From positions 93,631 to 157,630 of the forward strand of contig CAKQLP010000003.1 in assembly GCA_934254675.1 (NCBI GenBank): a stretch of DNA of 64,000 nt. The letters are read 5' to 3'. The translations under genes and the position numbers were made by a program. This DNA is from an uncultured Alphaproteobacteria bacterium. GTDB lineage: Bacteria > Pseudomonadota > Alphaproteobacteria > RF32 > CAG-239. The notes beneath the pieces are model-generated. The model did no database searches. It was not told the DNA's origin and saw only the letters and a program-made list of their open reading frames with translations. This document shows, in pieces, positions 26,105 through 27,112 of the stretch. Within the stretch, counting starts at the first letter, position 1, and each line of letters opens with the position of its first letter.

Positions 26105-26995
26105 TTATTTCGAAAATTTTATACCGAAACTATTGTCATATCCCCAAACAGAATTAGTATCACAATGCTGTGCCGCCAATGCTGGAGACAAGGGAAGATG
26201 ATTAGCACAAGCACGAAATCCATACCCATCTCTATGGCCTATATCCGTACATCCTTTAGGGGCATAATATTCTAAAAATCCATCAAATTTTCCAGACATA
26301 AAACCAATATTAATAGCTACAAGACCAGAAGCAGAATTTCCCCAATCTGCGGTTGCTAAAGCAATGCATCCTTCTTTTGTAATATTTAAAAAATTGATAT
26401 AAAAACTCTTTCCATATCCAATAATACCAACAGGAGAGCCAAAAACATTTGTAATGTCTGTATAATCTCCATTTCCACTGGTTTTTAGGTCATCAGGAAC
26501 AATTCCCATTTGCACAGCGGTTGTGTTATCGAGACCGTTAAAGTCTTTTTGCTGCATATATAAGGTTTGAATATTTGTTATTATTTCGGTAATTTGCTGT
26601 TTTGTTTTATTAATTTTATATGTTTCCATGGCTTTGGAGTAACCGGCAATTCCACCAACGGACAGGACGCCGATGATGGCGAGGACGCCGAGCATTTCAA
26701 TCATGCTTCGTCCGCACTGCATGCCATCTACTAGGAATTTTTGCGCTCGTGTACCTCTTTTGTACACGTCGCTTAAAAATCCCGTCGTATCTGGCGCACA
26801 TTGTGGACGAAGGTTGTTATGGTCATACTCGGGCGTGACGGACAGTCTGTCCCGAGTATCCAAAGAAGAGTGTTCATAATGGATTCTCGGAATAAATCCG
26901 AGAATGACGTTTGCAAGGTGTTTTGCATGGATTCTCGGAACAAGTCCGAGAATGACGGAGAATAGGGCATTCCGTTCCGACTCAAATTTTTTCAA
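26105..26995 (-). CDS. type IV pilin-like protein, paralog 2. The ORF as drawn runs through the upstream palindromic repeat, so the true start is probably near 26740-26765.
   Basis: Conserved G|RSMIEMLGVLAIIGVLSVGGIAGYSKAM with Glu+5 and Tyr+24. Candidate starts are GTG (leader VYKRGTRAQKFLVDGMQCG) or ATG (MQCG). The upstream 95 codons are translated palindromes. Confidence 0.6.
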   Translation of the reverse strand: MKKFESERNALFSVILGLVPRIHAKHLANVILGFIPRIHYEHSSLDTRDRLSVTPEYDHNNLRPQCAPDTTGFLSDVYKRGTRAQKFLVDGMQCGRSMIEMLGVLAIIGVLSVGGIAGYSKAMETYKINKTKQQITEIITNIQTLYMQQKDFNGLDNTTAVQMGIVPDDLKTSGNGDYTDITNVFGSPVGIIGYGKSFYINFLNITKEGCIALATADWGNSASGLVAINIGFMSGKFDGFLEYYAPKGCTDIGHRDGYGFRACANHLPLSPALAAQHCDTNSVWGYDNSFGIKFSK

Positions 26996-27112
26996 AAAAT
27001 GGCAAAAAACGCGCGTAGAAGCTTTAAAACGCTCTGAAATCGAATGTTTAGGATTTACAGAGAGAGAGAGAGACCTTTGCTGAGCTTATTTTTCATCTTT
27101 CTTTCCTCTTAA
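26760..27112 (-). repeat. conserved upstream repeat block A (palindromic modules, (AG)7 and conserved core), 5' of pilin paralog 2
   Basis: Perfect palindromes attctcggaataaatccgagaat (26883-26905), attctcggaacaagtccgagaat (26941-26963) and tactcggg..cccgagta (26826-26858). (AG)7 at 27061-27074. The core 27000-27110 is near-identical to 50200-50308 and 54100-54185. Confidence 0.85.

Follow-up and report, generated by a model that had tools for sequence, protein, structure and literature searches.

What are the palindrome-rich blocks found beside the pilin genes of an uncultured gut alphaproteobacterium: regulatory DNA in front of those genes, or part of the genes themselves? The question is posed by a stretch of 64,000 nucleotides (contig CAKQLP010000003.1 of assembly GCA_934254675.1, positions 93,631 to 157,630; lineage RF32, CAG-239), which we call the window and in which three such blocks stand beside three pilin paralogs, here genes A, B and C. 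A first-pass annotation had taken the blocks for noncoding elements upstream of the genes, and their palindromes for operator half-sites of a dimeric regulator. We find that the blocks are not regulatory DNA in front of the genes: each forms the 5' end of a type IVb prepilin gene that is monocistronic. Taking the explanation as a whole, we think it likely that these are phase-variable prepilin genes whose leaders are translated, disposable and built from the hairpins called Ssn-related motifs (SRMs).

All three pilin genes and their blocks lie on the minus strand. Each block consists of a Shine-Dalgarno (SD) site, an ATG, a (CT)7 tract and then a pilin frame that stays open for 118-142 codons up to the cleavage site G|RSMIEMLGVLAIIG (the bar marks cleavage). 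The similarity that first drew attention to the blocks is real: a 61-bp core, AAGCTTTAAAACGCTCTGAAATCGAATGTTTAGGATTTAC(AG)7ACCTTTG, occurs at 27019, 50213 and 54117 with 0 mismatches, and none is expected by chance. This core had been quoted as if in gene orientation; it is the plus strand, antisense to the genes, and its (AG)7, which the annotation passed over, is the frameshifting phase-variation tract. The copies are homologous from the ribosome-binding site onward and not in the promoter, and the blocks, rather than being upstream of the genes, lie 3' of three landmarks: promoter-like site, ribosome-binding site and ATG. The parts of the three genes are as follows.

27179-27203: terminator of the FadL gene, 5' of the promoter-like site of gene A
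27120-27147, minus strand: promoter-like site of gene A, TTAAGA-16-TATAAT, a match to consensus only
27094-27110, minus strand: SD region aagaggaaagaaag and ATG (27096-27094) of gene A
27059-27072, minus strand: phase-variation tract of gene A, a coding (CT)7 repeat, OFF
26711-27058, minus strand: leader-coding array of gene A, VNPKHSISERF ... DGMQCG, with the cleavage-site Gly codon at 26713-26711
26105-26710, minus strand: mature type IVb pilin A, 201 amino acids (aa) plus stop
26059-26088, minus strand: terminator-like hairpin at the end of gene A
50253-50290, minus strand: start of gene B, with ATG (50290-50288), 8 codons and (CT)7 (50253-50266), OFF
49923-50252, minus strand: leader-coding array of gene B, ending ...LHAVSSG
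49311-49922, minus strand: mature pilin B, 203 aa plus stop, in which only the N-terminal class III motif is recognisable
54157-54194, minus strand: start of gene C, with ATG (54194-54192), 8 codons and (CT)7 (54157-54170), OFF
53749-54156, minus strand: leader-coding array of gene C, ending ...TRQTNPIG
53059-53748, minus strand: mature pilin C, 229 aa plus stop

Gene A is thus self-contained, running from the FadL terminator through TTAAGA-16-TATAAT, the SD and ATG and the open reading frame (ORF) to its own terminator. The same SD and ATG recur in gene B and at loci L001, L003, L004, L044 and L090-93. The frame that opens at the ATG reads from the strong SD (aagaggaaagaaag) through MKNKLSKG, (CT)7 and MKNKLSKGLSLSL to a stop after 13 codons; removing one CT unit or adding two joins it to the pilin frame, and the leaders predicted for this ON state are 128, 122 and 148 aa long in A, B and C, all net basic.

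That the genes are pilins, as the annotation had proposed, is borne out by the class III signal motif G|RSMIEMLGVLAIIGVLS common to A, B and C. In its longer form, G|RSMIEMLGVLAIIGVLSVGGIAGY, it provides Gly at -1, Glu at +5 and about 20 hydrophobic residues in all three. The globular domain of gene A is of type IVb, with matches to Pfam PilS_N and Bundlin (3.5e-11 and 4.6e-10), to bundlin BfpA in the PDB (4.5e-8) and, by Foldseek, to 3fhu and 8uhf, the folds of S. Typhi PilS and V. cholerae TcpA; the globular domains of B and C, too diverged, gave no sequence matches. The family therefore shares with the type IVb prepilins BfpA, TcpA and S. Typhi/R64 PilS the Gly at -1, the Glu at +5 and the hydrophobic alpha1 helix, together with the PilS_N/Bundlin signature and PilS/TcpA fold in gene A. 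It differs in its leader. Known prepilin leaders are 6-30 aa long, those of classical type IVb prepilins about 15-30 aa (PMC4471445); the leaders predicted here, at 122-148 aa and up to about 259 aa in homologs, fall outside that range.

The case for a translated leader begins with its reading frame. Across 12 long-leader loci, the pilin frame contains 0 stops in 1795 codons when followed from the cleavage site back to the start region (83-216 codons each), against 78 and 124 stops in the two remaining sense frames; the three antisense frames have 82, 26 and 126. Because these loci were collected by DNA pattern or mature-pilin motif, the sample is unbiased by gene calling. The leader array of gene A alone has 0 stops in the pilin frame versus 5 and 6 in the other sense frames, and the indels between the three block copies (9, 48, 3 and 12 nt) are all multiples of 3. 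With an SD and ATG in front and an open frame continuous with the pilin behind, the description of the block as noncoding does not hold, and our confidence in this reading-frame anatomy is high. Internal start codons near the cleavage site were considered as an alternative origin of the pilins; those of A (MQCG) and B (MNFLRQ...) lack a convincing SD and gene C has no ATG there, and we judge them unlikely.

We then asked what the CT tract does. Joining the ATG to the pilin frame needs n(CT) = 3, 6, 9 or 12, so that all three genes of the window, at (CT)7, are OFF; a simple-sequence repeat in the 5' coding region sets the frame by its length, as in phase-variable genes. Among the DNA loci, n(CT) takes the values 4, 5, 6, 7 and 8. 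In the best 120 of more than 7600 protein homologs, 16-17 begin MKNK.SKG(LS)nV with n(CT) = 3, 6, 9 or 12, and about 43 of the same 120 start at (M/L)xKFES, right after the tract; we read the latter as OFF alleles truncated by gene callers. The most direct comparison comes from a syntenic locus (SIR2 - MORN - HU - pilin - DinB) at which L090 and L091-93 share about 6950 bp at 99.5% identity. One CT unit is the sole indel between them: L090 has (CT)6, is ON and encodes the full-length 350-aa prepilin P0027, and L091-93 have (CT)7, are OFF and yield the truncated call P0079. One locus thus exists in ON and OFF alleles, and we hold this polymorphism with high confidence. Switching may occur at high frequency.

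A ribosome could in principle reach the pilin frame from the ATG by programmed frameshifting at the CT tract, with no slippage of the DNA. All three window copies are indeed out of frame by an equal amount, with a 0-frame stop directly after the tract. Yet tracts of n = 4, 5, 7 and 8 place the ATG in both alternative frames, in-frame alleles with n = 3, 6, 9 and 12 exist, a one-unit DNA difference separates ON from OFF at the otherwise near-identical locus, and the tract contains no known slippery heptamer; frameshifting is, to our minds, barely credible.

DNA slippage at such a tract has clear precedents. The Neisseria opa genes carry CTCTT coding repeats that cause translational phase variation. 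The oipA/hop genes of H. pylori do the same with CT dinucleotide repeats (PMC10564699). The genes described here resemble both in having a CT-type repeat a few codons after the ATG that codes for Leu-Ser and shifts the frame by its copy number, and in forming many paralogs scattered on the chromosome, each with its own switch. They differ in their target, a type IVb prepilin, and in that the repeat lies in a class III leader and not in a Sec signal peptide.

What, then, are the hairpins that fill the leader behind the tract? Class 1, ATTCTCGGA-N5-TCCGAGAAT, has 5 matches in the window at up to 2 mismatches where about 0.01 are expected, and the pattern search confirmed the reported 2, 1 and 2 copies in blocks A, B and C. 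Class 2, TACTCGGG-N5-CCCGAGTA, has 3 matches (chance expectation about 0), one in B and two in C; the latter include the class-2/class-1 hybrid noted earlier, which we recovered at 53882. The reported variant with the nested palindrome gacagACTGTC was likewise found, in block A at 26822-26862. The hairpins of the window are the following.

26927-26956, minus strand: class-1 SRM hairpin GTCATTCTCGGACTTGTTCCGAGAATCCAT of block A, fitting the published degenerate SRM pattern
26879-26908, minus strand: second class-1 SRM hairpin of block A, GTCATTCTCGGATTTATTCCGAGAATCCAT
26822-26862, plus strand (antisense): class-2 (NTSvar-type) hairpin of block A, DTRDRLSVTPEYD, with a 12-nt loop insertion that holds the nested palindrome
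26748-26768, no strand: palindrome CGTGTAC-N7-GTACACG in the cleavage-proximal module (DVYKRGTRA) of block A
50121-50150, minus strand: class-1 SRM hairpin of B, 1 arm mismatch
50076-50105, plus strand: class-2 hairpin of B, GTCATACTCGGGCGTGACCCGAGTATC, NTSvar except for its first base (T versus C)
54016-54045, minus strand: class-1 SRM hairpin of C, 1 mismatch
53968-53997, minus strand: class-1 SRM hairpin of C
53920-53949, plus strand: class-2/NTSvar hairpin of C
53878-53907, plus strand: hybrid class-2/class-1 hairpin of C

The palindrome CGTGTAC-N7-GTACACG also occurs in block C, at 53795-53814. All nine palindromes of the window fall within the three blocks, and no further G+C-containing hairpin turned up in the 64 kb when these were scanned for every perfect hairpin and for hairpins with an oriented GTCAT; the remaining hairpins are AT-rich, several of them terminator-like. 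The units have 9-bp arms and a 5-nt loop, a semi-palindromic core, and carry oriented flanks, GTCAT...ATC(C/T)A, in the 9 standard-length window units and in most metagenomic matches; the class-2 variant of block A has flanks like those of the standard units. Within each array, forward units (GTCAT on the sense strand) come first and reverse units follow.

These features are those of a recently recognised class of nuclease targets. Chenal et al. (Nat Commun, 2025; PMC11893778) described the motif NTS, CGTCATTCCCGCGMAVGCGGGAATCYRG, which encompasses dRS3, a variant NTSvar, CGTCATACTCGGGNNNNNCCCGAGTATC, and a degenerate SRM, all of them hairpins of single-stranded DNA (ssDNA) that are bound and cut by the 94-aa GIY-YIG nuclease SsnA. 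SRMs cluster around surface-protein genes and flank ssn genes; the GTC upstream and the C after the palindrome are reported to be critical for cutting and binding; and SsnA does not bind RNA (PMC11893778). The Ssn nuclease family was described only in that study, which counts Rickettsia among the SRM-rich genera (PMC11893778). In our window, the class-2 units at 50076 and 53920 are NTSvar CGTCATACTCGGGNNNNNCCCGAGTATC save for the first base (T for C; the authors allow one mismatch), and class 1 fits the degenerate SRM pattern, with 4 strict window matches versus 0.05 in shuffles. By these criteria of sequence and structure, the hairpins are Ssn-related, NTS/dRS3-like motifs: they share with the published ones the order CGTCAT, 9-bp arm, 5-nt loop, second arm, ATC(C/T), the GTC upstream and the C after the palindrome, and the clustering at a surface-protein gene, here a pilin. 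They differ in being intra-ORF and, as predicted, translated, where NTS is about 2% intragenic in N. meningitidis; in belonging to one gene family in the sampled DNA rather than to hundreds of dispersed copies; and in that no ssn gene was found in the DNA examined. An Ssn nuclease may act on them.

What is conserved in these units is their pairing. Among 22 distinct units chosen by their flanks only, 94% of cells pair, and compensatory changes occupy 18 cells at 3 pairs (stem positions), a figure reached by 0 of 500 shuffles. The sense strand folded as ssDNA gives z = -4.7. This bears directly on the operator proposal, in which a noncoding cis-regulatory block would bind a dimeric transcription factor of the pilin family. 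The palindromes are perfect, share a CTCGG/CCGAG core and, in this lineage, occur only beside pilin genes, as such a block might. An operator would be expected at or upstream of the promoter and conserved in sequence; the hairpins lie 3' of the ATG, 140-270 nt downstream of it, in a frame specifically kept open, and the homology between copies sets in only at the ribosome-binding site. Their flanks are oriented and match the published SRM signature, and a class-1-type unit flanks GIY-YIG nuclease genes in unrelated organisms. Because the arms vary by compensatory double changes, it is the pairing that is preserved and not a protein-contact sequence. We therefore regard the operator as very improbable; the likeness to REP (repetitive extragenic palindromic) and Rickettsia palindromic element (RPE) repeats, which the first-pass annotation had also noticed, is upheld in that these are repeat hairpins.

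Covariation fits RNA stems equally well, the hairpins are transcribed, and the 5' core is strongly conserved without codon bias. Might they then work in the mRNA, on stability, ribosome pausing or thermosensing, with the ORF incidental to ribosome passage? An Rfam scan of block A and its surroundings found no family, only sub-threshold miRNA noise; SsnA does not bind RNA; and identical units stand in non-transcribed contexts elsewhere. Because half of the units have the conserved GTCAT orientation on the antisense strand, an RNA motif is disfavoured and a DNA element expected, and we allow an RNA-level function only a very small chance.

A metagenome-wide scan with class 1 returned 79 loci, about 14 of them pilin-linked; the class-1 palindrome had 0 matches in viral contigs. 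The non-pilin loci belong to unrelated organisms (G+C 0.33-0.66) and keep the oriented flanks gtcATTCTCGGA-(CTTGA/CTTGT/TTTAT)-TCCGAGAATcca, often with an inverted partner unit after them. Inside this lineage the elements accompany only pilin paralogs; beyond it, the hairpin unit is widespread in unrelated metagenomic organisms. In a groundwater metagenome (L056, 3893-4260), a forward SRM with class-1 arms stands immediately upstream of a 94-aa GIY-YIG gene that is followed by a reverse SRM, an order already published as SRM-ssn-SRM; that contig has another two GIY-YIG-like matches, one of them Pfam-confirmed. At L019, too, a GIY-YIG gene adjoins the hairpin unit. As a separate observation, rumen contigs L007 (37-458), L034, L054 and L059 carry the class-1 hairpin within a tandem repeat of about 200 bp that also holds a terminator-like hairpin, aaaaagccaccataaaggtggctttttt, a non-pilin use of the SRM unit.

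Differences between codons of the leader core are 75 synonymous and 282 non-synonymous with no position bias, against 2095 synonymous and 632 non-synonymous, with a strong third-position excess, in the adjacent mature alpha1 helix. By this measure the amino acids of the leader are under no purifying selection, and AlphaFold gives the leader a predicted local distance difference test score of 30-60 where the pilin domain scores 85-96. The first 12 leader codons after the tract (VNPKHSISERFK; 27023-27058, minus strand GTAAATCCTAAACATTCGATTTCAGAGCGTTTTAAA) are nearly invariant as DNA, and a small AAATC/GATTT stem is predicted there. Among L001-L004 the invariance of the core stretch is by construction, because these were retrieved with an exact 23-mer from the core; it also holds in loci not picked by this sequence, and the codon-position test rests chiefly on sequence beyond the 23-mer. 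The earlier idea that selection or gene conversion keeps the core so alike stands in its second half, a DNA-level process such as gene conversion or recombination; selection on the protein finds no support in the codon counts.

The array is, moreover, a mosaic. Mature pilin A shares 99% identity with P0002, 96% with P0001 and 93% with P0003/P0007, yet the cleavage-proximal modules of these proteins are of different types (i, ii, ii+i and iii); between P0003 and P0007 the mature part is identical and the start type is not. At one locus the mature pilin is 98% identical between samples, with an array of 236 nt in one and 437 nt in another. Judged from such comparisons, rearrangement of the array is not tied to the mature pilin. 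Leaders often hold a tandem series of 24-nt partial copies of the left hairpin arm, GTCATTCTCGGACACACTTTAAAT, read VILGHTLN (P0010, P0013, P0021, P0038 and others; L008 2215-2290), and these eight-codon units look like slippage products of half-hairpins. Other members of the family have ordinary leaders of 8-9 aa (MYKNFENG|RS, MFKEINQSG|RS), and a second long-leader class starts MYKNF... and has no CT tract. Because short-leader relatives exist, we suggest that the modules are insertions, placed behind the start codon and ahead of the cleavage site. Nor is an SRM within a leader limited to one species, since a second pilin lineage (L039 2764-2832, L046 and L060; G+C 0.40-0.47) has one forward/reverse hairpin pair in frame in its leader, reading VILGLVPRI ... 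DSRNKSEND.

An insertion of this kind could be selfish, the units being hitchhikers akin to MITEs (transposable elements of the miniature inverted-repeat kind) or REPs that settled neutrally in a permissive, cleaved leader and have no role for the pilin genes. The leader without amino-acid constraint, the spread of the unit through unrelated organisms with its own nuclease gene, the short-leader relatives and the precedent of RPEs all speak for this. But a mobile element should be intergenic too, and in the roughly 125 kb made up by the window and about 60 kb from related gut contigs no G+C-containing unit stands outside pilin leaders, each being at most 500 nt upstream of the cleavage site of a pilin. 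In the one large module indel examined, the 48-nt module missing from block B, both boundaries fall in the repeated CGTCATTCTC and target-site duplications were not seen; and the layout is ordered, forward units and then reverse. We hold the selfish explanation to be unlikely. The annotation had named copies at many unrelated loci with target-site duplications as the sign of a generic MITE: the unit does occur at unrelated loci, and the duplications were not seen. On the same grounds, and with no copies beyond pilin leaders in the 125 kb, we do not class the arrays as MITEs. REP and REPIN elements have a GT[AG]G head beside the hairpin and a RAYT transposase gene. The head here is GTCAT, not GT[AG]G, and these classes were set aside, with no search made for RAYT.

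RPEs were found inserted in frame in protein-coding genes (reviewed in PMC10969869). As there, palindromic repeat DNA is tolerated in alphaproteobacterial ORFs and, by prediction here, translated; RPEs differ in being about 150 bp long and sitting in unrelated genes, where ours are arrays of short units in a segment predicted to be cleaved, so that the analogy extends to in-frame behaviour only. A closer parallel is the neisserial intergenic mosaic element (NIME), a dRS3-RS-dRS3 array found between genes around pilE/pilS and other surface-protein genes, in which pilS is embedded, and which the 2007 genome paper took to be Neisseria-specific (PMC1797815). The region upstream of N. gonorrhoeae pilE (sequence in PMC7593972) has the same forward...reverse hairpin pair. 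Both kinds of array consist of inverted hairpin repeats with variable spacers, differ in length and composition between strains at syntenic sites, and are tied to pilin genes and mosaic exchange; the present one differs in belonging to an alphaproteobacterium and in its position, in frame and flanked by a start codon and the cleavage site of a prepilin. The dRS3 pattern ATTCCC-N8-GGGAAT has no exact match (the arms are ATTCTC.../...GAGAAT or ATACTC.../...GAGTAT) and the array is inside an ORF: it works like a NIME and is not a member. In the literature searched we found no description of this pilin family or of SRMs within a leader. The parts, CT-repeat phase variation and a NIME-like hairpin array, are known; what is new is an array translated as a prepilin leader of 122-148 aa.

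We propose the following course of events for these phase-variable prepilin genes. Transcription would start at a gene-specific promoter and translation at the strong SD and ATG (MKNKLSKG), from which the ribosome would at once cross (CT)n coding for Leu-Ser repeats. Slipped-strand mispairing would alter n, only 3, 6, 9 or 12 joining the ATG to the pilin frame; at n = 7, translation would stop after 13 codons and the gene would be OFF; a multi-copy pilin family would in this way vary in phase at the level of translation. With the gene ON, the ribosome would read 110-135 more codons, a mosaic of oriented hairpins and spacers in which sense-strand GTCAT-stem-loop-stem-ATCCA units would be followed by such units on the antisense strand. 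The product would have a leader of 122-148 aa, basic, unstructured and remaining in the cytoplasm, and we expect with moderate confidence that it is cut away at G|RSMIE by prepilin peptidase. The hairpins would be selected as ssDNA structures, not as peptide or operator, in a NIME-like array whose growth, shrinkage and exchange do not depend on the mature pilin. Probably the array serves or controls recombination, both among paralogs and with DNA from outside; in any specific role of the hairpins our confidence is low to moderate. A bolder version we offer tentatively, as possible rather than probable. In it, a large, dispersed family of phase-variable type IVb pilins in human-gut Alphaproteobacteria would have domesticated Ssn-type arrays, which would serve as leader cassettes that are translated and then discarded; such a leader, being cleaved off, could consist wholly of hairpins that are targets of recombination or of an ssDNA nuclease, and the array would be a programmable junction at which pilin bodies and 5' switch modules are swapped among paralogs and strains.

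Several observations weigh against this proposal. A leader of more than 100 aa is far beyond the known 6-30 aa. Because homologous exchange between repeats preserves register, the multiple-of-3 indels are weaker evidence for translation; repeat recombination may itself have kept the register, and the 12 loci are not fully independent. The tract does not vary among the three window copies, nor among L084-87, four near-identical assemblies of one locus (another allele of the SIR2-DinB site), which all have the same OFF length. SRM hairpins are reported to be rare inside genes in Neisseria (about 2%) and are intragenic here. Searches by regular expression and by tblastn, the latter with two GIY-YIG query sequences that were not database entries, found no ssn (GIY-YIG) gene in the window, nor in related pilin contigs totalling about 60 kb. 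The 8 kb beyond the left window edge hold no ssn and no SRM, and the protein at the right edge is not on record. The L056 Ssn, searched against a set of 5.8 billion proteins, gave only environmental matches and no link to this organism. Switching in the population, translation of the leader and its cleavage are deduced and not observed.

The window is chromosomal DNA of a human-gut bacterium: an ABC-transporter protein of the window is also encoded on Hadza gut contigs of 127 and 558 kb, and one protein is indexed in 157 blocks of the assembly collection. The pilin genes of the window are single and scattered among housekeeping genes, and a search of the window for pilus machinery found, besides housekeeping genes, only one T2SSE-family ATPase. 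Two transporter paralogs and a fourth pilin complete the picture.

55712-56668, minus strand: T2SSE-family (type II/IV secretion) ATPase, 1.5 kb from pilin C
27223-28473, minus strand: FadL/TodX-family outer-membrane transporter, near a pilin paralog
56860-58170, plus strand: paralog of the FadL/TodX-family outer-membrane transporter, near a pilin paralog
3497-4261, plus strand: fourth pilin paralog, cleavage-site Gly codon at 3638

The fourth pilin has a leader of at most about 35 aa (from its open frame), no CT tract and no hairpin array. At the corresponding site in two Hadza contigs (L094 10799-11198; L095 11375-12097), one lacks the gene, with DivIC leading straight into DsbD, and the other has a 240-aa ORF at the syntenic site, a candidate pilin only; the fourth pilin is a presence/absence polymorphism. 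Very long, perfect AT-rich hairpins at 22644-22686, 61511-61552 and 46008-46043 (stems of 19, 19 and 15 bp) stand between convergent or adjacent genes and are probably bidirectional terminators.

A prepilin leader of 120-260 aa made from repeat DNA breaks the textbook range of 6-30 aa and suggests that the leader is a free evolutionary playground. Annotation of the family is systematically wrong, since gene callers cut OFF alleles short at an internal TTG or ATG. The confinement of SRMs, in frame, to one surface-antigen gene family ties these motifs to antigen variability in a second, unrelated lineage and makes the pilin leaders a tractable locus at which to test the role of Ssn and NTS outside Neisseria. 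Should the arrays indeed have been domesticated as leader cassettes, this would be a form of pilin antigenic variation mechanistically distinct from Neisseria pilE/pilS, and the first biological role for SRM arrays inside a gene. With four pilin genes in the 64-kb window and more than 7600 homologs in public data, a gut alphaproteobacterium that recurs in the Hadza gut metagenome assemblies examined has many independently switchable pilin genes, and so many switchable pilins imply strong selection on pili by host or phage.

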